Source: a virus. Taken from it: a stretch of 64,000 nt of DNA. Below the pieces are notes generated by a model that saw only the letters and a program-made list of their open reading frames with translations, made no database searches and was not told where the DNA came from. A program made the position numbers and the translations under genes. Position 1 is the first letter of the stretch, and each line of letters starts with the position of its first letter. Below are positions 12,023 through 56,783 of this stretch, in pieces. The stretch is from the UHGV virus genome UHGV-0113858; one strand, 5' to 3'.

Positions 12023-12170
12023 TTCATCCTCCTAAAAGGAGAAATCATACATAAATTTTTCAAACTGTCAAGCCCATCCTCGCGGATCACTTTGTAGTAT
12101 TTATGTCTTTAGGATTTCCCAGCAATTCAATGGATGCACCTTATAAATTACTTCATAAGGGGGCTATCAA

Positions 12171-39019: not shown

Positions 39020-39290
39020 CCAACCCCGGACACTGGTGACCGGACACCCCGGACATGGATGACCTACGACATAATAAAGAATAAAACAATAAAGATAATA
39101 AAACATAAAACATAGATCTTTATAAAAAGATCTTGATCTATGGTTTAGTTAGTGTATAGTTAGTTTCAAGAGGAAGTGATGAATCACTTCAGTCATCCAT
39201 AAGTGGATTAGCCATAAGCTAACCCGTTTACGGGTGTTAGATGTGTGTGGAAGTGCAATGTGTTCGGAGCCACGGGCGACAGGAGCTTCT
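39020..39290. repeat. non-coding repeat-rich region (CCGGACA x3, AATAAA-type A/T repeats, 8-bp stem hairpin AGATCTTT/AAAGATCT, TAGTTAGT repeats)
   Basis: Read directly; there is no ORF, and it lies immediately downstream of the HTH gene. Confidence 0.5.
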
Positions 39291-42432: not shown

Positions 42433-43248
42433 ATGACTACTATCTTAAACACTCTCGAACTTATCCCCCATAACAAGGTTAGTTATGATTTTCCTAACGT
42501 GCGCGGCGACCTTGAAAGGCTTTACCTTGATGCAGTATATGCCCTTGGTGGTGTAGAATTCTCTACTGACGAGACTGATGAGAGGACTTTCAATCAGGCC
42601 AAGGCCAGCGTGGAAAGTGTGCTTGATGACCTTAAGCAATACGCTACAGGTTCAGAGGTTGAAGGGCTTCTCGATTATGCAAAAGACACTGAACGTGCCT
42701 TTGTTGAAAGAGGTGAGTATGTACTCAATGCCATGCGGCGCATGAACAAGTTCAGTAAGGATATCTTAGATATCGACAATACTTGGAACAGAGAAGACAT
42801 TGCAAATGGTGTTGCCTGGATCGCAGAGCAACTGGGTGAGATGTTTGATGGAGGATCCCATATACGGTACATGATGCAGAATCGAGGATGGCGAGACCTG
42901 TATCTTGATTACCTCGTGAACCTTGTCGGTAACCCGGTAGTAGAGGTGCTTGCACATTATTCTTCTGCTCATGATTTGGTGTATGGTGTCGATGGTCGTA
43001 TCAAGATTGCTGATAATACCGTTACACTTATGAATGGCCCTACTTCCTTGGTCCTTTCTCCTATTCCCGGTGATATGCGTATTGTTTACACAGTCCCAGG
43101 AAAGACAGAACGGTTCCTGATTTCTGTATTGAGCACATTTTTCATTGACATTTGTAATCCGACTCCAGATGAGGTTCAAATGTATGAAATTTCTACAGGC
43201 ACAACCTATGATATTATTAAATGGAAGGATATTTTCAATCCAAGATAA
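42433..43248 (+). CDS. hypothetical protein (about 271 aa)
   Basis: Start chosen at MTTILNTLE; this is the last gene before the repeat region. Confidence 0.55.
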   Translation: MTTILNTLELIPHNKVSYDFPNVRGDLERLYLDAVYALGGVEFSTDETDERTFNQAKASVESVLDDLKQYATGSEVEGLLDYAKDTERAFVERGEYVLNAMRRMNKFSKDILDIDNTWNREDIANGVAWIAEQLGEMFDGGSHIRYMMQNRGWRDLYLDYLVNLVGNPVVEVLAHYSSAHDLVYGVDGRIKIADNTVTLMNGPTSLVLSPIPGDMRIVYTVPGKTERFLISVLSTFFIDICNPTPDEVQMYEISTGTTYDIIKWKDIFNPR

Positions 43249-43523
43249 GATTCAAAACTGTGGGATATTTGTACGATATTTAATATCCCAAAGATATTTT
43301 AAAATTCGAAATGGTTTTCAAAATCGTTTTTGAAACGGATTTCATCTTACCTGCAAATTTTTAAATAAAGAGTTTTGGGAGTAGATTATCTCAAACCTTT
43401 GTGGAAGCTATGTCGAAAAATGATGCACAAGTGTATGATTGCTATAGGTATCTTGGCATCAAGATTGGACATTTATCTCAAATAGGCGAAAAAGATATCT
43501 CAAATTTTCAGGTAGAAAACTCT

Positions 43524-43740
43524 GGGTTCTCGATCGACTTTTCGTTTTCAAAAACGTATTTGCTCTCACTATCAAAAAATTTTTCTCTATATCAACCGGG
43601 TTCTCGATCGGTTTTTCAAAATCGAGATCGTAATTGTTTTTTCTCTAGAAAAAATTTTTCGGCCCGGTTCTCGATCGAGATCTCAATTTCCAGATCGTAT
43701 TTGTTTTCTTACGCGAAAAAATTTTTTAGGGGTATCGCTC
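43524..43740. repeat. three tandem copies of a degenerate 70-bp unit (GGTTCTCGATCG ... CGTATTTGTTTTCT ... AAAAAATTTTT)
   Basis: GGGTTCTCGATCG occurs at 43524, 43598 and 43665. Each unit carries an A6T5 tract. ATCTCAAA repeats lie upstream. Confidence 0.6.
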
Positions 43741-43787
43741 AGTATCTCACATGAAAAATCAGAAGTCAATATTTAAATTTTTTGTTG

Positions 43788-43835
43788 AATGAGAAGCATT
43801 CTTATTTAGTTATTTGAATGATAATCATTCTCATT
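43788..43835. promoter_or_regulatory. two adjacent Fur-box-like palindromes
   Basis: AATGAGAAGCATTCTTATT and AATGATAATCATTCTCATT; compare the Fur box GATAATGATAATCATTATC. Confidence 0.4.
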
Positions 43836-44065
43836 TGCTGAATGACAGGCACCCCCGGTGTTTTGTACTCCGGTTTCAATGTTCCCGCTATGTGTATAAT
43901 ATAGGATACACGGCCCCATGTTGCAAGCGTCTTTACAATTCTTTACAAATAGACTTTAGGCGAGCTACCGGCGATCCACCTTCCAACCAGGTCTCCGCGC
44001 CTGGTATGTTAGCCCCGCCTTTCCGCCGTGGGGTGGCGTCTCTTCTCCTGTCTGATAAATATAAC

Positions 44066-44108
44066 CCAAGCCGGGGCCGTTTGCAAGCCCCGCGATAAAA
44101 TATTTTTA
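44066..44108. repeat. about 43-bp hairpin-containing element (copy A)
   Basis: CCAAGCCGGGGCCGTTTGCAAGCCCCGCGATAAAATATTTTTA; related copy at 44334..44374. Confidence 0.45.
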
Positions 44109-44291
44109 CTCCCAGGAGTCCGCGATCACTTCTCCATTTTCCGCAACAATTCTCACCCTGGTAAATCCTGAATTATACATTTTCAACGCAAAGGGTAAAG
44201 GCACGATCCTAACCTGGGGCGCTGCGCTTTCCGTCTCCCAGGTGGAAAGGGTAACCATTGTTTCACTCGTTATTACTTTTGCGTTTTCCAT
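44106..44291 (-). CDS. small protein (61 aa) on the minus strand inside the plus block
   Basis: It carries the same AAAGGTAAAC SD as the plus-strand cassette genes, and is flanked by the direct repeat copies A and B. Confidence 0.35.
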   Translation of the reverse strand: MENAKVITSETMVTLSTWETESAAPQVRIVPLPFALKMYNSGFTRVRIVAENGEVIADSWE

Positions 44292-44333
44292 TTCGTTTAC
44301 CTTTATTTGTTGGCGTCCTTATATAGTACACTA

Positions 44334-44374
44334 ACCAGGCCGGGGCGCAAGCCCACACGAACAAAAATATTTTT
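44334..44374. repeat. about 41-bp hairpin-containing element (copy B)
   Basis: CCAGGCCGGGGCGCAAGCCCACACGAACAAAAATATTTTTA. Confidence 0.45.
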
Positions 44375-44395
44375 AATTTATTTTCATCCAGGGTA

Positions 44396-44424
44396 TTGAC
44401 GCGGGGATCACTATCACTTAATAT
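44396..44424 (+). promoter_or_regulatory. sigma70 promoter with about 150-nt structured leader
   Basis: TTGACG, 17-nt spacer, TAATAT. The leader contains CCGGGG...CCCCCGG hairpins. Confidence 0.5.
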
Positions 44425-44579
44425 TCATTTCACCGGGGCGGGGTGAATCCAAGGCCCCCGGTTGAAATAGTGGGGCGTGGAGTAAAGCGCAAGCGATGAG
44501 GATTCAATCTGGCCCGGAAAGGTGAGGATCTCCAAAATCCAGGGCAAAACAAAATTACATCTACTGAAGAGGCTACAAC

Positions 44580-44747
44580 ATGAAAAACATTTCTTTTACT
44601 ACCCGTGACCAGGCCCGCGCTTTTACCCGTAATGTTAACAGCAAGGTAACCACGGCGGCGCGTTTACGTCAACCTGTTAAAGATGGCGCCGGGCAATGGG
44701 TTATCCCTGGAATTAACCACGGTAAAACCTTATCCCTGGCTAAATAA
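44580..44747 (+). CDS. small basic protein (55 aa)
   Basis: GAAGAGGCTACAAC SD; product MKNISFTTRDQARAF...; not in the track. Confidence 0.4.
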   Translation: MKNISFTTRDQARAFTRNVNSKVTTAARLRQPVKDGAGQWVIPGINHGKTLSLAK

Positions 44748-44840
44748 AATATTTTATCCTGGGCGCTTGCTTTCAGTTAGCGCCTTTGATAAAGTGTTTT
44801 CTCAGGCGGCAAGGGCCGCGATAAATCGAGGTAAAAAGCA

Positions 44841-45626
44841 ATGTCTACGTTTAAACTTAATAATGGTCTGGTTGTCAACTCAGAATCCGAGATCGTGCAT
44901 AGTGTACCGGGTAAAAAATCCACAGCAAAAAAGGGTTATGTATTATATAAAGGCCCGTCAGTTCTGGATAAGGCCCCGATCGTGGTCATTGCTACAATGT
45001 CAACCGCTAACGATAAAACCGGCGATATGATCCAGACCTGGATCATGCGGGAAGATGTTAGCCCACTGGAAGCGAGCGCTAAAAAACTTGATTCATCTGT
45101 TTGCGGTATGTGTCCCCATCGTACCAGCTTAAACGGCGCTTGTTATGTGACGTTACACCAGGCCCCGCTGGCAGTCTGGAAGTCTTACAAAAAAGGCAAC
45201 TATAAAGATCTTGATTCTCGCGATCTGGTACATTTTGCGGGGCGTTATATCCGTTTAGGTTCCTACGGTGATCCGGCGGCGGTCCCTTTTGAGGTATGGC
45301 AAAACATGGTCAACCATACGCAAGGAAACACGGGATACACTCACCAGATCCACCATAAGAATTTTGATCATCGTATCGCTACCATTTGCCAGATCTCAGC
45401 CGATACGGAGAAACAAGCGATCACAGCATGGGGCCAGGGTTATAAAACTTTCCGCGTGAAAACTCCCAACATGCGCCGCTTGGAAGGTGAGATCACTTGC
45501 GTTAATACAACTCACAATATCAGCTGTTTAGATTGCGGATTGTGCGACGGTAAACGCGCCAACGTCGTGATCGACGTTCACGGCAGATCCGCAAAAAGAT
45601 TCGATAAATTCGAACGTATCATTTGA
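44841..45626 (+). CDS. Cys-rich hypothetical protein (261 aa)
   Basis: CGAGGTAAAAAGCA SD; motifs CGMCPH and CLDCGLCDG. Confidence 0.6.
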   Translation: MSTFKLNNGLVVNSESEIVHSVPGKKSTAKKGYVLYKGPSVLDKAPIVVIATMSTANDKTGDMIQTWIMREDVSPLEASAKKLDSSVCGMCPHRTSLNGACYVTLHQAPLAVWKSYKKGNYKDLDSRDLVHFAGRYIRLGSYGDPAAVPFEVWQNMVNHTQGNTGYTHQIHHKNFDHRIATICQISADTEKQAITAWGQGYKTFRVKTPNMRRLEGEITCVNTTHNISCLDCGLCDGKRANVVIDVHGRSAKRFDKFERII

Positions 45627-45651
45627 CAACCGCCACACGATAACAGATAAT
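45623..45651 (+). promoter_or_regulatory. sigma70 promoter
   Basis: TTGACA, 17-nt spacer, GATAAT, followed by 5' hairpin GCCGGGGAATTCTCCCCGGC. Confidence 0.5.
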
Positions 45652-45699
45652 ACAAATCAGCCGGGGAATTCTCCCCGGCCCTAGCAAGGGTAAAATATC

Positions 45700-45969
45700 A
45701 TGGCAATGAATCTCAGGTCTTTAAAGCTTATGCGCGATTTTAACAAGTGTTTTCACCAGGTCGCCCAGTATGGCGAGTGTATCAGCATATCAAAAGAGGC
45801 CTACAACGTGGATCACTTCCATCACGGCCCTGATTGCCTGATCTCAGTCCTTGTTAAAAAATTTAACTATCTTGGGCATGAATTCACCTTTAAGATCTCA
45901 GATCTTGATAATAAATATTATCTAGCTGGCGATATATGCGCCGCTGGCTGGAAAGATTTAAGAAAATAA
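45700..45969 (+). CDS. hypothetical protein (89 aa)
   Basis: AAGGGTAAAATATC SD. Confidence 0.5.
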   Translation: MAMNLRSLKLMRDFNKCFHQVAQYGECISISKEAYNVDHFHHGPDCLISVLVKKFNYLGHEFTFKISDLDNKYYLAGDICAAGWKDLRK

Positions 45970-45972
45970 TAT

Positions 45973-46002
45973 TTGACACCAGGCCCGGAAAGGGCCTATA
46001 AT
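45973..46002 (+). promoter_or_regulatory. consensus sigma70 promoter with hairpin in the spacer
   Basis: TTGACA, 18-nt spacer CCAGGCCCGGAAAGGGCC, TATAAT. Confidence 0.6.
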
Positions 46003-46045
46003 TACCAGGCACCAACAAACTAAACACTAAACGAGGTAAAATATC

Positions 46046-46558
46046 ATGGGCTGGACTGGCATTTATTCTAATCTTAATAACAAAAAATTTGTTGAAAATT
46101 ATCTGACTGATAACCGCGTGATCGAAACTTCTGTTGTAGGCAATGAAGTTTATCAACTTGCAAGGGCGAGGGATGAAAGTCTTTACATTCGTGTAACAAT
46201 TCTTTCCCGTAAAGATGGTATGGTTTTTTATAAGGATATGGATGAATCTTGCGGCCCGTGTTATTACAACTGTCCTGAAAAATTCCTTAAGCTATCCACG
46301 CAAAAAGATGAATTTTCCGTTAATTGGCGCGCCGCTTGCCGTCAACATGCTAAATACAAAAAAGAGCAGAAAGCATTGATTGATCGGATCAAGATCCTGA
46401 AAAATGGTGATCGCGTGGAAATGATATCCGGGCGCGTGGTAGTCTTTGAGTTCCCCCATAACCGCGCCCGATTTGCTGGACGTCTGGCGGACGTTGCACC
46501 AGGTAAACAAAATTCTCTTTTTGCATGGTCTTATAAAGACGTTGCAAAGATTCTTTAA
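46046..46558 (+). CDS. hypothetical protein (170 aa)
   Basis: ACGAGGTAAAATATC SD. Confidence 0.55.
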   Translation: MGWTGIYSNLNNKKFVENYLTDNRVIETSVVGNEVYQLARARDESLYIRVTILSRKDGMVFYKDMDESCGPCYYNCPEKFLKLSTQKDEFSVNWRAACRQHAKYKKEQKALIDRIKILKNGDRVEMISGRVVVFEFPHNRARFAGRLADVAPGKQNSLFAWSYKDVAKIL

Positions 46559-46617
46559 ACCGCTATACTGATTAAAGCCGGGGAATTGTCCCCGGCATAA
46601 CCTAAAAGGTAAACAAA

Positions 46618-46995
46618 ATGGCCTACATGAATAAAGAGAAGAAAGCGAAAATTGTTGAAGCAGTGAAAGCTGTATTGCCAAAAGGCTGGAAAGCAACATT
46701 TGCGATCCGTCACTATTCAACTATTGTTTGCACTATCCGATCCGCGCCGCTGGATCTCAAAGATGCCTTTCATCGTACCCGTGATGATTGGGATTTTCTA
46801 ACGATTAATACCTATCACGCTGAAAAGCAATGTAAGAATAAAGATATCGCCGATAAATTAGAAAAAATCATTGCAGCGTTAAATCTTGATAATTACGATA
46901 ACAGCGATATAATGACAGATTATTTTGATGTCGGTCATTATGTAGATCTTAAGTTCGGATCATGGGATAAGCCATTTAAAAACAGCGCTGCGTAA
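46618..46995 (+). CDS. hypothetical protein (125 aa)
   Basis: Promoter TTGCAA-16-TATACT, 5' hairpin GCCGGGGAATTGTCCCCGGC, AAAAGGTAAACAAA SD. Confidence 0.55.
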   Translation: MAYMNKEKKAKIVEAVKAVLPKGWKATFAIRHYSTIVCTIRSAPLDLKDAFHRTRDDWDFLTINTYHAEKQCKNKDIADKLEKIIAALNLDNYDNSDIMTDYFDVGHYVDLKFGSWDKPFKNSAA

Positions 46996-46996
46996 T

Positions 46997-47359
46997 ATGA
47001 AAGAATTGTTGATTCTACTCATATTTTGTTATTATGCAAAAATACACGCCAGATCCTGGCGTGTTATAAAATGGTTTTACTACTGGTACAGGGTTAAAAC
47101 AATGTTCCACTATATAGAATATCGCTTCCAGGGGGAGGATTACCACACCAGGCGATCCGGGCCGTTGAATGATCTGGAGGGTAGCGGCCTGATATGTGAG
47201 ATTAAACACCGGGGCGGCGTGGTCCTGGTACATAAAGAGGGATCCTTCGACTACATCGAAGAGCTGATCGAATATCGCAAAAAACAGATCGCGGAATGGC
47301 GATCGGAAACATACAACCACAGGGGATCAAGATATGACAGCAAAAAGCCGCAACTTTGA
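46997..47359 (+). CDS. hypothetical protein (120 aa)
   Basis: TAATATG overlap with the upstream stop. Confidence 0.5.
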   Translation: MKELLILLIFCYYAKIHARSWRVIKWFYYWYRVKTMFHYIEYRFQGEDYHTRRSGPLNDLEGSGLICEIKHRGGVVLVHKEGSFDYIEELIEYRKKQIAEWRSETYNHRGSRYDSKKPQL

Positions 47360-47549
47360 GAAGATGACAAGCCAGCGCGATCGCCTTGCTTTTGGTGAGA
47401 CTAACGAGCGGCGCGAGCGTAACAATAAACGGCATAAGCCGGAACGGATCGCGGTTCAATGGTCGCCGGACCAGTATGATCCGAAGTTGAATAAACGCCT
47501 TGCGGATCGTAAACGTAATTTGCAGCGATACGCCGTAGCAGGTGAATAA
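47334..47549 (+). CDS. basic hypothetical protein (71 aa)
   Basis: ORF track. Confidence 0.4.
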   Translation: MTAKSRNFEKMTSQRDRLAFGETNERRERNNKRHKPERIAVQWSPDQYDPKLNKRLADRKRNLQRYAVAGE

Positions 47550-47553
47550 CCAG

Positions 47554-47580
47554 GCCGGGGATAATTCCCCGGCTTTTTTA
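47554..47580 (+). terminator. rho-independent terminator
   Basis: GCCGGGG-ATAATT-CCCCGGC followed by TTTTTT. Confidence 0.7.
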
Positions 47581-47608
47581 TGCAAAATAGTGAATATGGC
47601 GAGATCTC
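47578..47608. repeat. 31-bp box TTATGCAAAATAGTGAATATGGCGAGATCTC (copy 1)
   Basis: Identical to the copy at 51312..51342. Each copy precedes a 250-300 bp gene-free stretch. Confidence 0.6.
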
Positions 47609-47882
47609 AGCGCAGCAATGCACTTACCAGGGTTACACATTGAAGCGCTTAGAATCGATTTGAGGGCGTTTTAGATGGTATCCGATAACCGCGCCCCGCT
47701 CAAAACGCCGAAAATTTAGTTACCGGTTGAAACTAATTGCATAACAGCGATTTTCTATGCACATCACTGCATATGAGAACAGTTCTCAACAATTCTTAAA
47801 AATATTTGTTGCATCCTGGCGGCGTTATGCTATCCTTTAATCAGTGGCGGAATTCACCGCCACACTGAAAAAGGTAAACACT

Positions 47883-48059
47883 ATGGAAAAGCAAAACATG
47901 TATAAAACGGCCTATAGTTCTGAATTTTGTTGTTATGTTGGGATTAATCGCGCTTGGAAAGATTCAAATGGTAAATGGATTTTTGAGTGCTCAAATGTGG
48001 CAAAGGGCCTGGATAACTTCCTTTTTCGTGAGTCAGAACTAGAAAAATTTTGTCTTTAA
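47883..48059 (+). CDS. small protein (about 58 aa)
   Basis: Start at MEKQNMYK after an AAAAGGTAAACACT SD. The longer track ORF begins upstream at a weaker site. Confidence 0.45.
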   Translation: MEKQNMYKTAYSSEFCCYVGINRAWKDSNGKWIFECSNVAKGLDNFLFRESELEKFCL

Positions 48060-48062
48060 TTG

Positions 48063-48091
48063 TTGACAAGCCAAGTCAAAAGGCCTATTAT
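48063..48091 (+). promoter_or_regulatory. sigma70 promoter
   Basis: TTGACA, 17-nt spacer, TATTAT, then 5' hairpin GGCGGGAATAGGTCCCGCC. Confidence 0.55.
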
Positions 48092-48139
48092 TCTCAATAA
48101 GGCGGGAATAGGTCCCGCCACCAGCTGGAAGGTAAAGAT

Positions 48140-48391
48140 ATGACAATTGTAAATGAAATCAAAAAACCTGGTATCGTTATTCGTGATATCTCCTCGGATT
48201 TTGGGGACGGAACTTATGACGTGTTGATCACGGATGAAAAAGGTAATTGCAGGTACTCACCCGAAGTTTTTAACACGGCAGAAAGCGCCGAAAAATATGC
48301 TCTTGCTGTTAATGATTTTTCTTGGTGGGATCAATACTTTAACAGTAAAGAGGCGGCCAGTGTCTGGGAATTGGTTAAACGCGTAAAATAA
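48140..48391 (+). CDS. hypothetical protein (83 aa)
   Basis: GGAAGGTAAAGAT SD. Confidence 0.5.
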   Translation: MTIVNEIKKPGIVIRDISSDFGDGTYDVLITDEKGNCRYSPEVFNTAESAEKYALAVNDFSWWDQYFNSKEAASVWELVKRVK

Positions 48392-48394
48392 CAG

Positions 48395-48424
48395 TTGACA
48401 CTGGTTAATGTGTGGGATTATACT
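48395..48424 (+). promoter_or_regulatory. sigma70 promoter
   Basis: TTGACA, 17-18 nt spacer, TTATAC/TATACT. Confidence 0.45.
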
Positions 48425-48469
48425 TCCTACACATTGACAAGTGAAACAATTAACCAAAAGGTAAACAAC

Positions 48470-48754
48470 ATGCAAAACGTAAAATCTAACATCGCCGATC
48501 TTGAATCAAAATTCCTGGGTAAAATGGTGTATCATAACTATGGTCAAATCGCTTTTGGCGTGGTAACCGGAATCGATGATCGCGATCCCAATAAATTACG
48601 TTTACGCGTGAAGTTTACCCGCAACAATACTCCGGCGCATATCAAAAAATATGACAACCGCGCGGATCGTGTTCGTTGCTTACTCCCTCAATCTGTTACC
48701 GTGTCCCGTGTTCAATATGGGATCTATAATCAGACAAACCAGATCAACAAATAA
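48470..48754 (+). CDS. hypothetical protein (about 94 aa)
   Basis: Start at MQNVKSNI after a CAAAAGGTAAACAAC SD. Confidence 0.5.
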   Translation: MQNVKSNIADLESKFLGKMVYHNYGQIAFGVVTGIDDRDPNKLRLRVKFTRNNTPAHIKKYDNRADRVRCLLPQSVTVSRVQYGIYNQTNQINK

Positions 48755-48792
48755 TCATTAACGGGGCTTTGCGCCCCATTAAGGCGGCTAAC

Positions 48793-49011
48793 ATGTTCGG
48801 ATTTATTATATTGGCTTGTCATATTTCTGTTAGTTCGATGGCATTACAATGTGATTGGAATGTTAAAAAAACATTCCCCACGGAACAGGCTTGCAACGTG
48901 TACGAAAACGAATACACGTTAGGCAAAGGCGAGCAGATTGGGATCTGCGATGAGTTAGATCCCGGCGTTAAAGAAGGCGATAAGCGCCCTATTCTCACCC
49001 TCAAAAAGTAA
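48793..49011 (+). CDS. small secreted Cys-containing protein
   Basis: 5' hairpin GGGGCTTTGCGCCCC; signal-like MFGFIILACHISVSSMA. Confidence 0.45.
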   Translation: MFGFIILACHISVSSMALQCDWNVKKTFPTEQACNVYENEYTLGKGEQIGICDELDPGVKEGDKRPILTLKK

Positions 49012-49021
49012 GGTAACGATC

Positions 49022-49225
49022 ATGTTTGAAGTATTCGCGGGTATGTGCTTTTATGGTGCGCTGGCTTTAAAACAGTGTGATGATTATGTAGTAGAAAGCT
49101 ATGATGATCAATTGACTTGCGAGATCGTCGCCGTTGACTATCAGCGCCAGGGGCGCTGGATTAATCCGGCCTGCATACCATCGCCGGAAGTCGAACCGAT
49201 GCCGGAAAGCAAAAATAATTATTGA
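49022..49225 (+). CDS. small secreted Cys-containing protein (67 aa)
   Basis: AAGGTAACGATC SD; N-terminus MFEVFAGMCFYGALALKQC. Confidence 0.45.
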   Translation: MFEVFAGMCFYGALALKQCDDYVVESYDDQLTCEIVAVDYQRQGRWINPACIPSPEVEPMPESKNNY

Positions 49226-49250
49226 TCCCCCGGCCCGGTTAGGTTATATT
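49222..49250 (+). promoter_or_regulatory. sigma70 promoter with GC-rich spacer
   Basis: TTGATC, 17-nt spacer CCCCGGCCCGGTTAGGT, TATATT. Confidence 0.5.
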
Positions 49251-49296
49251 ACTTGGACCGGGCAAGATTGGCCCACTAACAAAAAGGTAAAATAGT

Positions 49297-49620
49297 ATGG
49301 AAAAGGCAAACAAATTTTTCTTTCTGGAAAATGTTAACGATAATGTTAATTGCGACTTTAATCGCCAGGGTGAAAAAACCATGTTAGTATTTTGTCATGA
49401 GAATGACAGCGAACAAACTGACCGTTTAACTGTCCTGATCCGCACTGAAAAATCCATTCAATCCCATAGCGGGAAACTTGAAAACCGTCATTTTATCGCC
49501 TACACGCTTGAAAGAAGCGGAGTAACAATAAAACAGGCTGACAGCCTGCCTATAACTACCCCGGATCTAGTCTGGATGTTTACAACTGCTATTGTTAACG
49601 ATGTTTTCCGTGCTGACTAA
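49297..49620 (+). CDS. hypothetical protein (107 aa)
   Basis: AAAAAGGTAAAATAGT SD. Confidence 0.5.
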   Translation: MEKANKFFFLENVNDNVNCDFNRQGEKTMLVFCHENDSEQTDRLTVLIRTEKSIQSHSGKLENRHFIAYTLERSGVTIKQADSLPITTPDLVWMFTTAIVNDVFRAD

Positions 49621-49727
49621 TTGAGAAAATTAATCTGAAAAGTCGCTTGCAAACGTGAGCGACTTTTATTATATTTAATGCACAGGGCGGCAATGGTGCG
49701 ACGGCCCAAAAATCGAGGTAAAACAGA

Positions 49728-50498
49728 ATGACCACTAAAATCACCGTTACTTATTACATCGACTCCGGTAAGCTGAATGCAATGTATACATTGCGCCGCC
49801 GTAATTTTGGTGGTGGCGTTTTTGCAGATTCTTACATTTGCAATCTTTCAACCGATCCCCAAAAAGCAGAAAATAAAGCAAAGGAATATTTTGATCGAGT
49901 AACCGCGCGGATCGCCAATACAGAAAACTTTGAGCAAGTTTTTGCAGGCTATGCGGATTTTGAGCTGGGGCAACGTCGCGGTAAATTGTCGATCGTCGAT
50001 ACCGCCCGGATCGAAGAAATCGAAGCGGGGCGCTTTCCGTTTGGCAAGCATTGCGGTAAAACGTTTGCCGATGTTAAAGAATCCTATGTTTTATTTTTTG
50101 CCGATATGGCAAACAAGCCAGACAACGGCCCGGTAATGGAAGCATTAAGCGCGGCATGTTTGGGTTATGCTCTTGATCATGGTTACATTGCAGCCCGTGA
50201 CCAAAAACGCGCCGAGCGTAAAGCCGAGGATTTAAAAAGCAATTGGATCGGCAACATTGGCGATCGCCTGGTTTTTGAGGGTGAGATTATTTTCTCTTAT
50301 CTGAAAATTGATGAATGGAGTTTATCATCTTACTATATTATAAAAATTCGCCAGGGTGACGATCTGGTTACCTACATCGGATCAAAAGAGTTAGGCCCGG
50401 TTGGAGCGGTTATTAAGTTTAAAGCTACCGTCAAAAAACATGATACCTATCAGGACGTCAAAACGACCGTTGTAAACCGTCCCGCCATTCTGGCATAG
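49728..50498 (+). CDS. hypothetical protein (256 aa)
   Basis: TCGAGGTAAAACAGA SD. Confidence 0.6.
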   Translation: MTTKITVTYYIDSGKLNAMYTLRRRNFGGGVFADSYICNLSTDPQKAENKAKEYFDRVTARIANTENFEQVFAGYADFELGQRRGKLSIVDTARIEEIEAGRFPFGKHCGKTFADVKESYVLFFADMANKPDNGPVMEALSAACLGYALDHGYIAARDQKRAERKAEDLKSNWIGNIGDRLVFEGEIIFSYLKIDEWSLSSYYIIKIRQGDDLVTYIGSKELGPVGAVIKFKATVKKHDTYQDVKTTVVNRPAILA

Positions 50499-50547
50499 TG
50501 TACACCAGGCCCCGGATCGCCGGGGCAACTTTTACTGGTAAATGCAA

Positions 50548-50700
50548 ATGATACGTTTTCTCAATATGCGATCTGGTAAAATTTACCGCTGGATTGAAAA
50601 CCGCGTTTTAGTTGAAACGCCAAAAGGCTGGCGACGTGTAGATCACTTGCGCCCCGCCGATCTGGCTTGCTTTCCTTTCATGGGGATTAAAAAATGATTA
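50548..50700 (+). CDS. micro-protein (50 aa)
   Basis: GGTAAATGCAA SD; ATGA overlap with the next gene; not in the track. Confidence 0.3.
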
Positions 50701-51161
50701 GTGTACGAATGTTTTATTACGATGAATTATCAGACCAGGCAAAAGCCGCCGCCCGCGCTAACGTTGTGATCCCCGAGGTGGAAGCACTGATCCGTAATGT
50801 TGGCAACGCTCGCCAGGCCTGGAAGGAAAACATTCACCGGGCAATTAATGACCCTTATCACGTGCGCCGGATCTACAATGGACAAATGGCGCTTTACAAA
50901 ATCCGGCACCAGGGCGAGGCTTATTTGATACCCTACATCCGGCAAAACTGCACAATTTATCTGGCCGATGGATCATATGTTTACTATGATTGCAACAAAA
51001 AACGGATCGCTATTGTTAACAGTGGTTATCATGGATTATTACCCGACGATCTCCAGGTGGCGGCGCGTGATGAATATGTGAGGGTAAACGAGCGAGGCCC
51101 GGCATACTTTAGAAAATTATATTCCGACATTGCAAAGGCGAAGAGATCCGGCCCAGCATGA
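50694..51161 (+). CDS. hypothetical protein (155 aa)
   Basis: ORF track. Confidence 0.55.
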   Translation: MISVRMFYYDELSDQAKAAARANVVIPEVEALIRNVGNARQAWKENIHRAINDPYHVRRIYNGQMALYKIRHQGEAYLIPYIRQNCTIYLADGSYVYYDCNKKRIAIVNSGYHGLLPDDLQVAARDEYVRVNERGPAYFRKLYSDIAKAKRSGPA

Positions 51162-51311
51162 TAGGAAAAATCTTTACAATTCCAGGGCTTGTTTTCGGTC
51201 CTGGTTTTTGTTATTCTGTTTTTGAAGCGGCAACGATGGACACCGGAGGAAAGTCACCGGAGGTGCCCGCTATTATGGTAATGAGAATTACTCTCAACAA
51301 CACCTAAAATC

Positions 51312-51342
51312 TTATGCAAAATAGTGAATATGGCGAGATCTC
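51312..51342. repeat. 31-bp box TTATGCAAAATAGTGAATATGGCGAGATCTC (copy 2)
   Basis: Exact repeat of 47578..47608. Confidence 0.6.
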
Positions 51343-51529
51343 CGCTAAAATGGACTAGGGTACAGCCTGGACGAAAAACCGCTTAAAACTCGTTACAGGA
51401 CGTTTAAAGGCCATATAAAAACAGCTTGACACGGGAAAACGGCTAAAAAGTAATTTCACCATGAAATCAATTGCATAGCGATGCATAAAGATGCAAAAAG
51501 TGAATAATGTAAAGATACGTAAAAGTCTA

Positions 51530-51558
51530 TTGACAGCGACCCCCGCTTATATTATTAT
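51530..51558 (+). promoter_or_regulatory. sigma70 promoter
   Basis: TTGACA, 17-nt spacer, TATTAT. A second weaker TTGACA lies at 51426. Confidence 0.5.
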
Positions 51559-51606
51559 TTATCTCGTAGGGCAAACAAACGAAAACAACTTAACGAGGTA
51601 AACATC

Positions 51607-51978
51607 ATGCGCTTAACTAACTTTGACCGTTACTACATCCGCGACGAACAAGCCAGCGCTTTCGGGTATGATCGTTCTATGTGTATGCAGCAGCACAAAG
51701 AAGGCGCACGTTTACACGTTGAAACCGTTGCTTTTGAAAATTATTTCATGGCTACTTTTACCGATGGTTTGCAAATGTCTATTGAGTTTAAAAATGGCGT
51801 TATGACCCTCGCAACCGAAGACAAATTTCGTAAAAAAGATCTCCGCGCTCATCCTTGTTTTGCAACTAATAAAGAATTATTGATCCGTGTTTATATCCGC
51901 CACGTTGTAGGCCGCATCGCTAACGAACAGCAGATCGCCGCCCTTGTTGATCTGGCCCTGAATCTCGATTTAAACTAA
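51607..51978 (+). CDS. hypothetical protein (123 aa)
   Basis: ACGAGGTAAACATC SD. Confidence 0.5.
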   Translation: MRLTNFDRYYIRDEQASAFGYDRSMCMQQHKEGARLHVETVAFENYFMATFTDGLQMSIEFKNGVMTLATEDKFRKKDLRAHPCFATNKELLIRVYIRHVVGRIANEQQIAALVDLALNLDLN

Positions 51979-52007
51979 TTGACAACGGGGCCGAAAGGCC
52001 CCATAAT
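51979..52007 (+). promoter_or_regulatory. sigma70 promoter with hairpin in the spacer
   Basis: TTGACA, 17-nt spacer ACGGGGCCGAAAGGCCC(C), CATAAT. Confidence 0.55.
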
Positions 52008-52040
52008 ACAGACTCACTAAACAAAACGAGGTAAACGGAA

Positions 52041-52355
52041 ATGACTAAATCTAAATTCTTTGAAATGCTGGATAAATATCTATCAAGCCATAACGAGTGG
52101 GCCAAACTTGGAAACGGTGGCGATTCATACAACGCTCGCCAGCTTAAACCCTACGTTTTCCACGAAGATCCGGCAAAACTGAAAGCATATCAAGAAAAAG
52201 ATCCGTCATATCCCTGGACCGCTCACGCATCAGGTTTTACCCTAGCTGATTGTTGGCATGTTGAAGTAATGCAACATAAAACCGCCGAGGCGGCAGAAAA
52301 GCAAGCCAAGATTTTTACCCGCTGGATCGCTGAATATAAAGAGCTTAACAAATAA
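52041..52355 (+). CDS. hypothetical protein (104 aa)
   Basis: ACGAGGTAAACGGAA SD. Confidence 0.5.
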   Translation: MTKSKFFEMLDKYLSSHNEWAKLGNGGDSYNARQLKPYVFHEDPAKLKAYQEKDPSYPWTAHASGFTLADCWHVEVMQHKTAEAAEKQAKIFTRWIAEYKELNK

Positions 52356-52403
52356 TTAAACCGGGGCGCTAGCCGCCCCGTTATCCTTTGAGGTAAAGCA
52401 ATT

Positions 52404-52634
52404 ATGATTAATATTAGTGTTGACAAGTTAGCCGAAATCATCCAGAAAGCAGGCGATGAAAAATATGGCGTAAACGATTGTTATTTCATTGGGCAGTATG
52501 AGGACGGGCGCTATTATGGTGTGTTGTCTAACAAGGTGAAAAGCCGTAGCAGCGCCGCACAATTGCGCCGCCCGGAGTTTTTAGAACAAAAGGGCCTTAA
52601 AGTAATAAAAGTAATTAAACGCAAAAAAGGTTAA
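52404..52634 (+). CDS. hypothetical protein (76 aa)
   Basis: TGAGGTAAAGCAATT SD. Confidence 0.45.
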   Translation: MINISVDKLAEIIQKAGDEKYGVNDCYFIGQYEDGRYYGVLSNKVKSRSSAAQLRRPEFLEQKGLKVIKVIKRKKG

Positions 52635-52846
52635 TGATCATGAGAACTGTAAAAGCGAAGGAATTAAAAGGCGGAATGGTCATTGAGTTACCGGACATTG
52701 CACCAGGCTTTAAGCCGGGTAGCGTCCTCATCACACAAATAGAAATCGAAGCGCCCCACATTGTGGAAGTATCTTTCTATTACAAAAAGCGCTATATGGC
52801 CGACCTTTATCACCCTGAGGCGGAATTTAAACTAATCGGTGAATGA
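52634..52846 (+). CDS. hypothetical protein (70 aa)
   Basis: ATGA overlap with the upstream gene. Confidence 0.45.
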   Translation: MIMRTVKAKELKGGMVIELPDIAPGFKPGSVLITQIEIEAPHIVEVSFYYKKRYMADLYHPEAEFKLIGE

Positions 52847-52959
52847 GGCTGTAAAGAAAAGGCAACTAATTAAAAAGCGCTTGCCTGGCCAGATGTTTTC
52901 GACTATTATTTATTTCAGGGCGGGAAGATAATCAACCCGCAAAACCGAAGGTAAATAAA

Positions 52960-53130
52960 ATGTCAAATATCCGCTACAATATCAAAAGCACTTCAAAAAC
53001 CGGTTATGTGTCTTATGTTCGCCAGGGGTCTACAACTGCTTGGACCTTTGAAGAATGTATGAAAATTGTTACTACGCTTTCAGGTGATGATCGCTATATG
53101 GGCGTTTTATTTGAGATTGAATTAGCTTAA
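52960..53130 (+). CDS. small protein (56 aa)
   Basis: CCGAAGGTAAATAAA SD; not in the track. Confidence 0.4.
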   Translation: MSNIRYNIKSTSKTGYVSYVRQGSTTAWTFEECMKIVTTLSGDDRYMGVLFEIELA

Positions 53131-53146
53131 TTAGCAAAATAACACC

Positions 53147-53172
53147 GGGGCGCTATTGCAGCGCCCTTTTTC
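53147..53172 (+). terminator. rho-independent terminator
   Basis: GGGCGCT-ATTGC-AGCGCCC followed by TTTTTCGTCT. Confidence 0.7.
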
Positions 53173-53215
53173 GTCTGTTATTCTTCTATCTCCTTCATTA
53201 AACGAGTAACACCAA

Positions 53216-53479
53216 ATGACAAACATGATTTACACTGTAAGCAAAACAAGCCTTTTACGCGCTACCCTGCTGGCTTGCCTTATTGCTTTAGTGTCTAATA
53301 CGTGTTTTAACTCGCTGGCTTGCCTGGTAACGACTGAGACAATGGCGCAAGGTTTTAACACCATGATCGACGTTTTACAATTGACGTTTTACACTCTGAT
53401 TAAACTTAATCGCTTTAATCGTTTAGACCGTTATGATCTCCCTTTCTTGATCGCTGGCCTGCTGGCTATCGCGCTGTAA
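53216..53479 (+). CDS. small membrane protein (87 aa)
   Basis: Hydrophobic (LLRATLLACLIALVSN, LPFLIAGLLAIAL); weak SD. Confidence 0.35.
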   Translation: MTNMIYTVSKTSLLRATLLACLIALVSNTCFNSLACLVTTETMAQGFNTMIDVLQLTFYTLIKLNRFNRLDRYDLPFLIAGLLAIAL

Positions 53480-53849
53480 GTCTCCACTACTCCCCAAAAA
53501 TAATGCCGGGCAACTCCCGCTTTTGTGTTTTTATACTTTAGGTTTTATCAATCAATAATCAAAAAGTGATAGATGACTAAAACCTGCATAATCGAGATCT
53601 CCAGACGGTAACCCACTAACCAGGGTAAGAGATAAAGCCCCTCAAAATGGCACATATTGCGCTTAAAATGGTATGGCCCTACCTAACAACCCCAACAATT
53701 AATAACGCATGTTATTAACTGAATAAAACATGCATTTTTAAGCATTATGTATGCATAGTGTGAGAATCGCTATCAAATGACAACTTTTATCATCTAGCCT
53801 ATTGTGTGAACTGGTTTTATTGAGCATAAAAATAAAATCTTGTCAAATA

Positions 53850-54200
53850 AAAATCGTTCGCGTAATCGTGGGGAGTGGCGCGAGCGTAGCGAGCGACACA
53901 ATAACACGGGAGTAACTCAAATGATAATCTCCCCGTCGCTAAAGCGATTAGCAACTAAAGTTGCTAACCCGTGGAACGGGCTATTATCATTTTCGTTCGC
54001 GTTATCGTGGCTCGTAGACGCCTAAGAGCGAATGAAAATTGTTATCATTAAGATGATTACATACGTAATCATTAACAGCCTAATTTTATCACATCGCCAC
54101 GATAACACCGATCACGCCCTGCGTGATCGCTCCCGTGTTATTGTGTCGATAGATATCGATTAGCGTAAACGCTAACCCGTTTCGGGCATTGATTGTGTCG
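53850..54200. repeat. structured non-coding module: 19-bp inverted repeat plus two copies of a twin-hairpin motif
   Basis: The 19-bp inverted repeat CGACACAATAACACGGGAG lies at 53894-53912 and 54129-54147. The duplicated motif consists of two adjacent hairpins, TTAGC(AAC/G)-TAAA-(GTT/C)GCTAA then CCCGT(gga/tt)ACGGG, at about 53950-53990 and about 54158-54186. A second inverted repeat GCGTTATCGTGGC/GCCACGATAAC is also present. Confidence 0.55.
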
Positions 54201-54453
54201 GTATGTGATGATAACACATGGTTACTATATGCGATCAAATCGCATTAAATCGTGAATAATGGTTGACAAACCAGAATTATTGATAATGAAAACATGTTGT
54301 TTTTGAGCATAGTTTGCCTGAAGTGTCAATATAAATTTATCATAGGGAATAGCTATCAATCCCTTGCGTAGCAATAAAGAAAATAGTTACCTATTGTAAC
54401 TATTTCAATGCTTTAGCATTGCCGGGTATCCGGTCCGTAACGGTGTTGATGGG

Positions 54454-54614
54454 AATGATTATCATTGCGGAAATGCTCAAAGTATAGCTGTGTGTTAAAC
54501 ACAATTCTCTCTCCTTGTCAAGCTTTTATTTATAAATTTACAAAATATTTATATTTGCGGAATGATTCTCATTTCGAAATTGAATTCGAAATCGAAATAA
54601 TAATGATTCTCATT
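54454..54614. promoter_or_regulatory. cluster of Fur-box-like palindromes with CGAAAT repeats
   Basis: AATGATTATCATT at 54454; AATGATTCTCATT at 54561 and 54602; these flank TTCGAAATTGAATTCGAAATCGAAAT. Confidence 0.4.
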
Positions 54615-55209
54615 CGTCGTCTCATTCACAAAACAACCCTAAAACATGAATAATCACACATGAAACTATCACCACAGTAACAGTCACACCATGTAATGAC
54701 CTGAAGCGGCTGGCCTATGCGTCGCACTGGTAACATTGGGGCATTATTAGCTTGCTATGTGTTGTTATCTAGTGCGTATAACGTGTTTTATGTTAAATGG
54801 CGTAATTCATATAAATATAAACAAGTCAATAGCAAATCGTGCTCTAAGCTGGCAAACCATATGCTTGCTATGTATCACACACAATTATTATTAGTTTCGG
54901 CAAGTAACTATCATGTCTGAGGAGGCCCCGAGGAACCGGGAACCGGATCGACCTTGCCCATGATATTTTGTAAAGATCCGTAAAAATAGTTGACGCCCGG
55001 AGCTGTCCGTCTAGCACCTCAGACAGTGCGAATGCTCCAAAACACCCAGACAGATATTTTTCGGCAAGTGATATTTTCGGCAGGGGGCATGTTTTGATTT
55101 CCCCACGGGGGAAGGGGTGGTTATACGGGGAAAACAGGGGCCTGTTTACGGTATCGACATATCGGGGAGTCCCTTCAGATTGTGTGTTAATGAAATGAGT
55201 ACGTAGTAC

Positions 55210-55228
55210 AATGAGAATCATTCTCATT
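55210..55228. promoter_or_regulatory. Fur-box-like perfect palindrome
   Basis: AATGAGAATCATTCTCATT, 19-bp dyad. Confidence 0.4.
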
Positions 55229-55332
55229 TACAGACAACCGGGCAGGTCCGGTGATTGTTTCGTGCAGCCTCAGCACCTGTTGCTGTGTGCAGGATAACAG
55301 GGTTGCCTATTCAGGTCAACCCCTTCGTGCGG

Positions 55333-55620
55333 TCACCACTGATGAAATCTTTTGTGCTCCCATCTCGCCCGGCTGATGATACACCACATAGCCTGTTCAT
55401 CATAGAAACCAAGCGCTTTAAGCTCTTGCTTCACATCGCTCAACTGTGCGTATAAATAAAGCTTTTTACTACCTTGACGCAGGAGGATAGCTGGTACAAG
55501 TGTCTTTGCATAGTCCAACAACACCTCTATTCTCTGCCTTTTCCCTTCAGATTTCTTGCGTGGGCAATTCCTGATGTGTGCCAGTTTTGCTGGCGCTTTT
55601 ACTACTTTGTTGAAAGCCAT
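55333..55620 (-). CDS. basic hypothetical protein (95 aa)
   Basis: ORF track; AAGGAA SD. Confidence 0.5.
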   Translation of the reverse strand: MAFNKVVKAPAKLAHIRNCPRKKSEGKRQRIEVLLDYAKTLVPAILLRQGSKKLYLYAQLSDVKQELKALGFYDEQAMWCIISRARWEHKRFHQW

Positions 55621-55800
55621 AGAGGTTCCTTAAAGAATGGTTGTGATGATCAGACATTGTTGTGTGGTTCTCATCATTGCATGGGTGGCCTGGCCCGTTG
55701 GAGGGTCGTTATTGTCATCATCGTCATCTACGAATAAGGTAAGGACCACCACCACGATGGCAACAATCCCCAACACCCAAAGAACTATAAGTCCCATCAT
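55621..55800 (-). CDS. small membrane protein with acidic stretch (59 aa)
   Basis: AAGGATGA SD; product MMGLIVLWVLGIVAIVVVVLTLFVDDDDDNND; not in the track. Confidence 0.4.
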
Positions 55801-55913
55801 TCATCCTTCTTAGCCACTGGCCCAATAGATACGTACAACATCATCCCATAAGGGATAAGGATCAGGAGCACTGTAATCAGCATCCCTAGTAATAAGAAAC
55901 CCATGTCGTCCAT
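55797..55913 (-). CDS. micro membrane protein (38 aa)
   Basis: GAGGAGAATTTT SD; product MDDMGFLLLGMLITVLLILIPYG. Confidence 0.35.
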   Translation of the reverse strand: MDDMGFLLLGMLITVLLILIPYGMMLYVSIGPVAKKDE

Positions 55914-55942
55914 AAAATTCTCCTCGTGTAATTGATAGAGGG

Positions 55943-55971
55943 AGTATAATCGCCGAGCCTGTTTACGTCAA
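55943..55971 (-). promoter_or_regulatory. sigma70 promoter (minus strand)
   Basis: Minus strand: TTGACG, 17-nt spacer, TATACT. Confidence 0.5.
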
Positions 55972-55993
55972 GGTAAATTGATGCTCCACTTTA

Positions 55994-56024
55994 GATAAAA
56001 GAAAAGGAGCCTCTTCAGACTCCC
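55994..56024 (-). terminator. rho-independent terminator (minus strand)
   Basis: Minus strand: GGAGTC-TGAAGA-GGCTCC followed by TTTTCTTTTATC. Confidence 0.5.
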
Positions 56025-56036
56025 TTGTGGTGTGGG

Positions 56037-56465
56037 TCAGATATTCTTGACTGCGATCAGGTTTGGGACATACGTACATGTTGGGGAGTAAGGGGTGTCC
56101 TTCCTGCGAAGCTGTGTCTTGCACAGAGAAGCATGTGATTGTGTGTCCACAGGCTCTCGGTCATAGAACGGATATCCGCTGCACATGTACGGGCGATCCT
56201 CGTAAATTGAGCACTTGTTGTCTTTCAGCTTTGTGCAGGTAAAGTAGCTGGTGAAGTGATTTGTTCCTTTACCAACTTCCTCACGACCTGTAACAACAAG
56301 AGGATTCCGTTTGTAGGCCTCATCCCTGGAGATTGGTTTCATCATCTCCCCGTGGATAGCAGATATTCTTCCGGCCCTGATTTTTTCGTGGAAGTCTTCG
56401 TGGGTGATGTTGTCTATGGCGATAACTTCACAACAGGCACTGCAATTATGGCAATGTTTTATCAT
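56037..56465 (-). CDS. YkgJ/UPF0153-like Cys-cluster protein (CxxCxxCC)
   Basis: HCHNCSACCE, plus downstream Cys residues (CTKL, KCSIY, MCSGYPFY). Confidence 0.5.
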   Translation of the reverse strand: MIKHCHNCSACCEVIAIDNITHEDFHEKIRAGRISAIHGEMMKPISRDEAYKRNPLVVTGREEVGKGTNHFTSYFTCTKLKDNKCSIYEDRPYMCSGYPFYDREPVDTQSHASLCKTQLRRKDTPYSPTCTYVPNLIAVKNI

Positions 56466-56783
56466 TTATAACCTCATCCAGGTTTGATAGTCAGCTTCTG
56501 TGTGGTGCTCATCCCGTGCAACCTTTTGTGGTGGAGCAGGGTTCTTTGCAGCAGCTTCCATGATTCCCCGTGGGTCGGGGTCTTCAATCAGGTGTTTGTG
56601 TTCATCACAGGCGTAATGCTTGTACCAGTCACGCAGTCCCCACGGTGGTTGGTATTTCGTCATAACTGTGCAGCGCCTGCGGATGCCAATGGCTTTGCAG
56701 AATTTGCAGTAGGTTATAGGTTTGCACTTCTTCAGCGGGATAGCTTTCATTATCACCCCGCAAATGGATGGTGCAGAATACAC
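56466..56783 (-). CDS. Cys-rich zinc-ribbon-like protein
   Basis: KKCKPITYCKFCKAIGIRRRC...YACDEH. Confidence 0.45.
   Translation of the reverse strand: MYSAPSICGVIMKAIPLKKCKPITYCKFCKAIGIRRRCTVMTKYQPPWGLRDWYKHYACDEHKHLIEDPDPRGIMEAAAKNPAPPQKVARDEHHTEADYQTWMRL

Follow-up and report, generated by a model that had tools for sequence, protein, structure and literature searches.

Why should a lytic phage carry sequences like the binding sites of an iron-dependent host regulator at both borders of its early genes? This question is raised by the window studied here, a stretch of 64,000 nucleotides of the virus genome UHGV-0113858, in which a preliminary description had noticed Fur-box-like palindromes (dyads) around an array of small genes. 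The window represents a Klebsiella Mydovirus (Vequintavirinae), and the 13 kb around the dyads are 93-96% identical to Mydovirus phages of Klebsiella and Proteus (KB57, Mydo, DP, and KPP-1). Genes at 35.5-53.5 kb lie on the plus strand, and from 55.3 kb on the genes face back toward the array. The array itself (44400-53480, plus strand) consists of about 30 small genes, which have sigma-70-like promoters and terminators of their own, and is transcribed toward the right genome end. Its label "early" is deduced from the gene layout, and no transcriptome or start-site data for this phage group were found in the literature searched.

Fur-box dyads at both borders of the early array

All five places listed in the preliminary description were found to hold such sites, namely, the tandem pair 43788-43806 and 43817-43835 and the regions of 54454, 54561, 54602, and 55210. 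To count them, we used the pattern AATGANAATCATTNTCATT with up to 3 mismatches, and both strands were counted as strand-matches. There were 13 strand-matches in the whole window against 0.63 expected, a number that 0 of 100 shuffles reached. The strong 19-bp dyads (AATGAKAATSATTMTCATT) are confined to two AT-rich non-coding regions. The left region (43250-44400) had 4 strand-matches against 0.018 expected, the right region (53480-55330) had 8 against 0.026, and neither number was reached in dinucleotide shuffles of the region alone (0/500 in both cases).

Each dyad is built on a 7-1-7 core unit, TGA(T/G)AATnATT(A/C)TCA (TGATAATnATTATCA), within a full 19-mer of 9-1-9 shape. In the left region, dyad A1 (AATGAGAAGCATTCTTATT, 43788-43806, 25.1 bits) and dyad A2 (AATGATAATCATTCTCATT, 43817-43835, 28.9 bits) stand in tandem with a spacing of 29 bp, and dyad A2 is an exact Fur-box 19-mer.

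The right cluster is spread across a 1.8-kb non-coding region (53.8-55.2 kb). It had been described, like the left region, as a large non-coding flank; both regions do hold the dyads, but the right one also includes the physical termini of the phage and is therefore not just an intergenic gap. The genome ends are formed by a 514-bp direct terminal repeat (54498-55011), to which the DP and KPP-1 coordinates map exactly. The DP record has an identical 514-bp repeat_region at both ends, and the repeat of KPP-1 was supported by twofold coverage and a PhageTerm call (PMC9862379).

Dyads are found outside the repeat, within it, and beyond it. Dyad B4 (GATGGGAATGATTATCATT, 54448-54466) lies 32 bp outside its left boundary, and four more sites are found in the 700 bp leftward. 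Dyad B1 (AATGACAACTTTTATCATC, 53776-53794) has a weaker neighbour (TGAGAATCGCTATCA) at 53761-53775. The centre of dyad B2 (53920-53991) is split by a 53-bp hairpin insertion (53930-53982) into 53920-53928 and 53983-53991, and this dyad is intact (AATGATAATCCTTATCATT) in DP, KPP-1, and KB57. Dyad B3 (AATGAAAATTGTTATCATT, 54031-54049) is present in 5 of 7 Mydoviruses. Within the repeat, there are a half-site plus centre (AATGATTCTCATT, 54561-54573) and dyad B5 (AATAATAATGATTCTCATT, 54596-54614). Finally, a perfect dyad (AATGAGAATCATTCTCATT, 55210-55228) begins 199 bp beyond the repeat and is followed on the plus strand by a GC element (CCGGGCAGGTCCGGTGATTG), the two together occupying 55210-55262. 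B1, B3, the split B2, and two weak dyads inside the array (47772-47790 and 51280-51298) are additions to the earlier list. When compared with the core TGAKAATnATTMTCA, there is no mismatch at 43817 and 55210, and there are 1-3 at the other sites. The close match claimed for the right-hand sites is thus perfect at 55210-55228 and good to 1-3 mismatches at 54448-54466 and 54596-54614; the site at 54561 is a half-site plus centre only.

The hairpin that splits B2 belongs to a small element (GATTAGC...GCTAACCCGT) with three copies in the window, at 39206-39227, 53946-53972, and 54158-54180. Two of the three copies are within insertions of about 53 bp that are variably present among close Mydoviruses, one of them being that in the centre of the dyad. 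The element looks like a miniature mobile insert.

The claim that dyads bracket the early array proved correct. In the complete DP genome (145.6 kb), sites of at least 14 bits are found at 134885/134914, at 142151 (17.1 bits), and at 144576-145233, the last being repeated at 99. All of them belong to the same two clusters as in the window except 142151, which stands between these in the early array. The rest of the DP genome, beyond the early block, has a single weak match (13.6 bits, at 77343).

The identity of the dyads is best seen from bacterial genomes. We found the exact 19-mers (AATGAKAATCATTCTCATT) in at least 120 stretches of bacterial genomes, which belong to Beta- and Gammaproteobacteria, Firmicutes, Cyanobacteria, and other groups, compared with a chance expectation of a handful (our estimate from the collection size, not a computed control). 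Many of these copies directly follow a TTGAC -35 element, and the genes next to them encode TonB receptors and iron ABC transporters or are feoA and even fur. Among 150 open reading frames (ORFs) immediately downstream, the families with the most matching members were TonB-receptor Plug (13), Fe(III)-type solute-binding protein (8), FUR (6), ZnuA (5), Peripla_BP_2 (3), FeoA (3), and Lys/Orn (siderophore) oxygenase (3). Furthermore, a matrix made from the phage sites only was run on 26 kb of E. coli K-12, and 6 of its 7 matches fell within the 726 bp that make up the three intergenic regions fepA-fes, fepD-entS, and fepB-entC. Since exact bacterial 19-mers stand at iron genes and the three Fur-controlled ent/fep promoters are recovered, the dyads are genuine Fur operators at the sequence level, and what had been reported as a resemblance to the Fur box is a true identity. 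The 19-mer of dyad A2 is found in bacterial iron promoters and is also the conserved last dyad in every genus examined.

The site shape fits the single-dimer model of Chen et al. 2007, and the same study reported that Fur recognition is conserved in distant bacteria (PMC2189734). In addition, GAGAAT and GATAAT half-sites combine independently (for example, 43817 is T/C), and such mixing fits half-site recognition by a protein, not a selected hairpin. The likeness to the E. coli Fur consensus GATAATGATAATCATTATC (7-1-7 / 9-1-9) extends down to exact 19-mers, with the half-site variants mixed alike. However, the phage setting differs from that of bacterial Fur boxes: it is lytic, it has no iron gene nearby, and its tandem arrays mostly do not lie over a promoter. 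Judged from the sequence, the stronger phage sites would bind Fur-Fe(II) at least as well as good chromosomal operators, and we consider it probable that Fur binds the arrays in vivo.

A Fur protein encoded by the phage itself was rejected as a candidate, because a phmmer search with E. coli Fur against 3014 ORFs of DP and the window gave no homologue (best E = 0.8). The query was validated by six strong matches among the bacterial neighbour ORFs. The preliminary description had also offered a phage repressor, for example the protein encoded at 38723-39019. According to this explanation, the dyads would be operators of a dimeric regulator of the phage, which shuts off or insulates the early region and whose Fur-like specificity is a coincidence. 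Indeed, regular 19-bp palindromes spaced by 29 bp near promoters resemble phage operator arrays, phage T5 encodes a pre-early DNA-binding protein (A2), and a small winged helix-turn-helix (HTH) protein is encoded upstream at 38723-39019 (plus strand, 98 aa, HTH_36). This protein is of a generic type, and its RefSeq name is "replication initiation protein". However, it was found in 68 phage records, compared with 362 for the left dyad region (217 of them Escherichia phages). Among its matches listed, the only Escherichia phage was the Seunavirus 4MG, and there was no rV5-like phage, Certrevirus, or Phapecoctavirus. It also has two alleles, 37% identical, in Mydoviruses that share identical dyads. 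The winged HTH protein was rejected as the dyad binder because of this distribution and these two alleles, and the phage repressor was weakened as an alternative. Moreover, no homologue of A2 was found, unrelated phages would all require the same protein, and the match to bacterial Fur boxes is exact. We therefore regard a phage-encoded binder as improbable. The split into two HTH alleles occurs among Mydoviruses that are otherwise 95% identical, which suggests cassette exchange at this gene.

Relation of the dyads to promoters, iterons, and termini

It had also been proposed that Fur controls early expression through these sites. Of the promoter-like sites in 43000-56500, we took the 12 with the best scores (10-12 of 12 matches); none of them overlaps a dyad and 7 lie inside the array, whereas the dyads stand at its borders. 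Thus, the proposal as it was worded, a global Fur control of the early genes, is not supported.

Mydovirus, rV5-like Vequintavirus, Certrevirus, and Phapecoctavirus all have the left region built in one fixed order. GATC-rich iterons come first, followed by 1-4 tandem dyads (29-bp spacing), the GC element CCGGTGwTTG, a -10-like TATAAT, TCTTTACAnTTCTTTACAAAT, and a conserved core of about 90 nt, with the first early gene after it. In the window, a repeat search located three GATC-rich direct repeats of about 64-74 nt (43522-43726; CCGGGTTCTCGATCG...GATCGTA...AAAAAATTTTT) immediately left of the dyads, and equivalent iterons were found in the CR3 and rV5-like loci. They overlap an ORF (43401-43754) that is annotated in Mydo and DP; it had no Pfam match and is probably spurious, not a gene. 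Between iterons and dyads, the promoter scan predicted a leftward sigma-70 promoter (43741-43769, minus strand; TTGACT-17-GATACT with TG), which would fire into the iterons with the dyads upstream. The alignment of PVP-SE1 and 4MG has a matching stretch, whose reverse complement we read as TTGACA.

To the right, dyad A2 is flanked by TTGAAT (43814-43819) and CTGAAT (43838-43843) with an 18-nt spacing. This position of the last left dyad between TTGAAT and C(A/T)GAAT makes a decent promoter pair in other genera, where it would be a classical Fur-over-promoter arrangement, and a weak pair here. An alignment of 12 phages then defines a GC-rich element, GGCAsscCCGGTGwTTG, followed by GCTATGTGTATAAT (-10-like, 43895-43900), the whole at 43848-43900 on the plus strand. 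The module of last dyad plus GC-rich element recurs at 55210-55262. Downstream, a TCTTTACAATTCTTTACAAAT element (43930-43950, plus strand) is likely the first early promoter, and it is near-identical to the one preceding the pre-early operon of the T5-like phage SPC35.

We also observed that TCTTTACAnTTCTTTACAAAT is almost exactly common to this phage group and to the front of the T5-like pre-early operon (SPC35; contig L271, about 10835-10875). Because its "spacer" is conserved as well, it might be more than a plain sigma-70 promoter.

The iterons at 43522-43726 are a possible replication origin. An alternative explanation would therefore make the whole left cluster part of an origin, with the dyads as accessory origin sites; the three iterons, the leftward promoter, and the RefSeq name of the nearby winged HTH protein speak in its favour. 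However, the second cluster at the termini and the location of the same dyads in T5 (see below) are unaccounted for, and the iterons are unchanged in phages with the divergent HTH allele. In addition, DnaA boxes (TTWTNCACA) are not enriched in the window, with 7 against 7.6 expected and no cluster at either dyad region. We consider an accessory role in an origin very improbable.

In the right region, a promoter for a 67-aa ORF (54717-54920) is predicted within the terminal repeat, at 54625-54654. Its -35 element adjoins an extra half-site, TCTCATT (54620-54626), and dyad B5 (54596-54614) is centred about 56 nt upstream of its likely start.

Whole-genome scans of related phages gave the two-cluster layout as well. 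A distance of 8-11 kb separates the clusters of DP, those of an rV5-like phage (12224-12389 and 624-758), and those of a Phapecoctavirus (140303-140390 and 148314/149068/1). For Seunaviruses, the homologous non-coding region at the terminus was found to hold 5-7 sites. Since three genera have the two clusters, the bracket is old and maintained. Meanwhile, the genome papers of rV5 and Certrevirus describe only sigma-70 promoters and a "non-coding" box.

Taking these results together, we propose, tentatively, that the dyads are operators of host Fur at the borders of the early block, with iron-gated repression or a roadblock there and possibly an architectural role at the genome end. That host Fur-Fe(II) loads onto the border arrays is the most likely part of this proposal. 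Each 19-mer would be one 9-1-9 site (7-1-7 core) that takes one Fur dimer with high affinity. The first array (43.8 kb) has the iterons on one side and the likely first early promoter on the other, and the second is spread around the terminal repeat (53.8-55.2 kb). When the DNA enters an iron-replete cell, Fur-Fe(II) would occupy both arrays and would act as an iron-dependent repressor or roadblock on a few border elements only. Three such elements may be concerned: a promoter-like pair, TTGAAT-N18-C(A/T)GAAT, with the last left dyad between its halves; the promoter that fires leftward into the iterons; and the one inside the terminal repeat. Fur may in addition serve as an architectural host factor at the genome end, and it would not be a switch for the whole early array. 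Under iron starvation (apo-Fur), the effect would be lifted.

Several observations weigh against the Fur-operator explanation. First, phylogenetic footprinting in seven Mydoviruses did not find the dyads better conserved than their surroundings: the right-cluster sites have 69% invariant columns compared with 70% for the surrounding non-coding sequence. Individual right-cluster sites turn over in these phages, being split by insertion, replaced, or gained. For example, the position of B4 has a Fur-like site in all seven, but the versions differ and are partly shifted, and the 55210 dyad belongs to a 31-bp indel and is present only in this phage and KpS11. Second, most dyads have no convincing overlapping -35/-10 pair, and in this phage the hexamer that follows the last left dyad at the -10-like position, CTGAAT, is without the key A. 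Third, chromosomal Fur sites typically form clusters with overlaps of 3 or 6 bp, and the tandem spacing of 29 bp is unlike these. Fourth, the repeats of T5-like phages and of Phapecoctavirus share a 24-nt identity; this suggests that the arrays may have been inherited from a common ancestor or transferred, so that the argument of their independent occurrence loses weight.

Sites that are strong, numerous, and mostly untied to promoters could also suit a Fur sponge. Each genome has about ten strong sites, and with their number raised by replication, Fur would be titrated away and the iron uptake of the host derepressed, which would serve the iron-dependent ribonucleotide reductase of the phage. 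Relatives do encode NrdA/NrdB, and the principle of titration is established, a Fur titration assay being cited in PMC2189734. However, a sponge explains neither the fixed positions at the borders nor the variation of site number between close relatives. T5 degrades host DNA within minutes, so that derepression would be pointless in that phage. A sponge is hardly probable in our opinion, and it is, like the phage-encoded binder and the accessory origin sites, less likely than the Fur-operator explanation and the T5-like one discussed in the following section.

Dyad arrays in T5 and in unrelated phages

The dyads of the window have a close counterpart in T5. The elements annotated there as "direct repeat C copies 1-4 / palindromes E-I" (9468-9637) are the same dyads; for instance, palindrome G (9577-9595) is AATGAGAATCATTATCATT and palindrome I (9612-9630) is AATGAGATTGATTCTCATT. 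They are located at the calculated shear point of the first-step-transfer DNA (about 9618), just left of the 7.9% nick. In SPC35, the array (8945-9073) is inside the left terminal repeat, which is annotated as first-step-transfer DNA. A comparison of 25 T5-like phages by Davison reported these repeats as conserved and of unknown role, proposed DnaA boxes as the stop signal, and did not mention Fur or iron. We found no paper that calls the T5 repeats Fur boxes or links them to Fur or iron in the literature searched. Within that literature, the Fur identity of the arrays at the early borders and termini of virulent phages appears to be new.

We compared 43522-43835 of the window with T5 9468-9637 and SPC35 8945-9073. 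In both the window and Repeat Region 3 of T5, the injection stop, tandem dyads (29-35 bp) occupy a large non-coding stretch, which forms the inner edge of a terminal early block. Iteron-like direct repeats stand on the far side of the dyads, and the promoter element TCTTTACAnTTCTTTACAAAT is common to both phages. The order from the terminus is also the same, that is, early genes read toward the end, dyad array, iterons, and rest of the genome. On the other hand, T5 is a siphovirus of Demerecviridae and this phage is a myovirus of Vequintavirinae. The terminal repeat of T5 is about 10 kb and holds the early block, whereas it is 514 bp here and the early array is unique sequence beside it. Moreover, this phage has a second cluster at the termini. 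The DnaA boxes of T5 are paired in the IRC/IRD inverted repeats, and none is paired here. Furthermore, phmmer searches with the SPC35 proteins against all DP and window ORFs gave no match at E <= 1 for A1 and A2, which restart the transfer in T5, or for dmp and the other annotated pre-early proteins.

This likeness gives rise to the main rival of the Fur-operator explanation, which partly overlaps with it. The arrays could be a cis-acting element for DNA entry or the genome end, as in the T5 injection stop, and Fur would then be an architectural cofactor at most. The arrays would be marks of the termini and of the inner edge of the first-entering segment (terminal repeat plus early array), with a role in pausing and resuming DNA transfer, in circularisation, or in packaging. 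The T5 dyads at the shear point beside the 7.9% nick, the common order from the terminus, the shared TCTTTACAnTTCTTTACAAAT, and the right cluster around the 514-bp terminal repeat all agree with such a role, as does the closeness of arrays to a terminase gene in two other phage contigs (see below). However, the T5 pre-early proteins have no homologues here, DnaA boxes are not enriched (7 against 7.6), the terminal repeat is 514 bp and not about 10 kb, and two-step transfer is unreported for this group in the literature searched. On balance, we regard an entry or terminus function of this kind as rather unlikely, although it is the strongest competitor.

Arrays of the same dyads are also found far from both groups. 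Among the first 120 viral contigs with an exact dyad, 69 hold at least 2 strong sites and 26 hold at least 3 within 400 bp. Six of these 26 are T5-like, and the other 20 have no nucleotide similarity to this phage group or to T5-like phages. Four of the 20 were scanned and are real phages, with terminase, head-tail adaptor, or HNH endonuclease genes. The IMG/VR contigs L147 (2215-2733), L130 (5708-5927), L178 (5780-5888), and L215 (255-344), from uncultured phages unrelated to this phage or to T5, carry 4-10 tandem dyads, 28-43 bp apart. The array of L147 has 10 sites in 520 bp, and a comparison of this contig with isolate phages gave no match. In L178 and L130, a distance of 0.6-2 kb separates the array from the terminase large-subunit gene, in whose neighbourhood genome ends are often found. 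Since such arrays occur in phages without common pre-early proteins, a common host factor is a simpler explanation than a common phage protein.

Host operators on phage genomes are known in other settings. For example, sitABCD on lambdoid phages has a Fur box (PMC6969025), so that operators of host Fur occur on a phage genome there as well. Such prophages belong to temperate phages, and one box controls a cargo gene there, whereas the phage studied here is virulent and has arrays in its regulatory and terminal DNA. A further prophage case is stx1. The IHF sites in lambda cosB are another parallel, being sites of a host DNA-binding protein near the packaging and terminal region of the phage genome; the protein and the motif are different.

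A bolder idea is that canonical Fur-box arrays are widespread and unrecognised host-factor sites that mark the first-entering or terminal segment of virulent phages (Vequintavirinae, Stephanstirmvirinae, T5-like, and other uncultured phages). Host Fur and iron would gate DNA transfer or the early hand-over, and the stop-signal palindromes of T5 would be Fur operators. We think this idea doubtful. If host Fur does load onto the arrays, the consequences would be considerable. First, a large group of phages of Klebsiella, E. coli, Salmonella, and Cronobacter that are candidates for therapy would sense the iron status of the host at the onset of infection, and iron is scarce in the body sites where such phages should act. 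Second, there would be a concrete handle on a question more than 50 years old, namely, what halts T5 DNA at 7.9%. Third, a metal sensor would join the short list of host DNA-binding proteins built into the regulatory or terminal DNA of phages. What was already known are the Fur boxes of prophage cargo genes and the T5 repeats, which had been annotated and left unexplained.

Other features of the window

A non-coding core of about 90 nt (43965-44054, plus strand) follows the TCTTTACAATTCTTTACAAAT element. It has 72-85% identity across Mydo-, Seuna-, Certre-, and Phapecoctavirus, that is, across two subfamilies, and its conservation is far above that of its surroundings. It might serve as a leader or a small RNA, or it might be bound by a protein. 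Its hairpin (ACCAGG...CCTGGT) has one possible compensatory change, but there is a T-C mismatch in four sequences and the columns are mostly invariant. A search of both non-coding regions against Rfam gave no match at the gathering threshold, and at E <= 1 there was one insignificant match (E = 0.91). A lone minus-strand gene of 61 aa (44106-44291), which belongs to Pfam DUF7170, separates the core from the first early gene.

Inside the early array, a 27-nt element (GCAAAATAGTGAATATGGCGAGATCTC) is identical at 47582-47608 and 51316-51342, which are the two largest intergenic gaps of the array. A related stretch (CGAGATCTC) is found at about 53593. Just right of the terminal dyad cluster, a gene on the minus strand (56037-56465) encodes a CxxCxxCC / YkgJ-type cysteine-cluster protein, a putative zinc or iron binder, which is kept in GAP31 and Ro1.

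In addition, a group I intron was found at 11541-12182 on the minus strand (Rfam RF00028, 66 bits, E = 1.4e-14). The DNA polymerase gene of DP is interrupted around an HNH endonuclease, and thus the intron is probably within the DNA polymerase gene.

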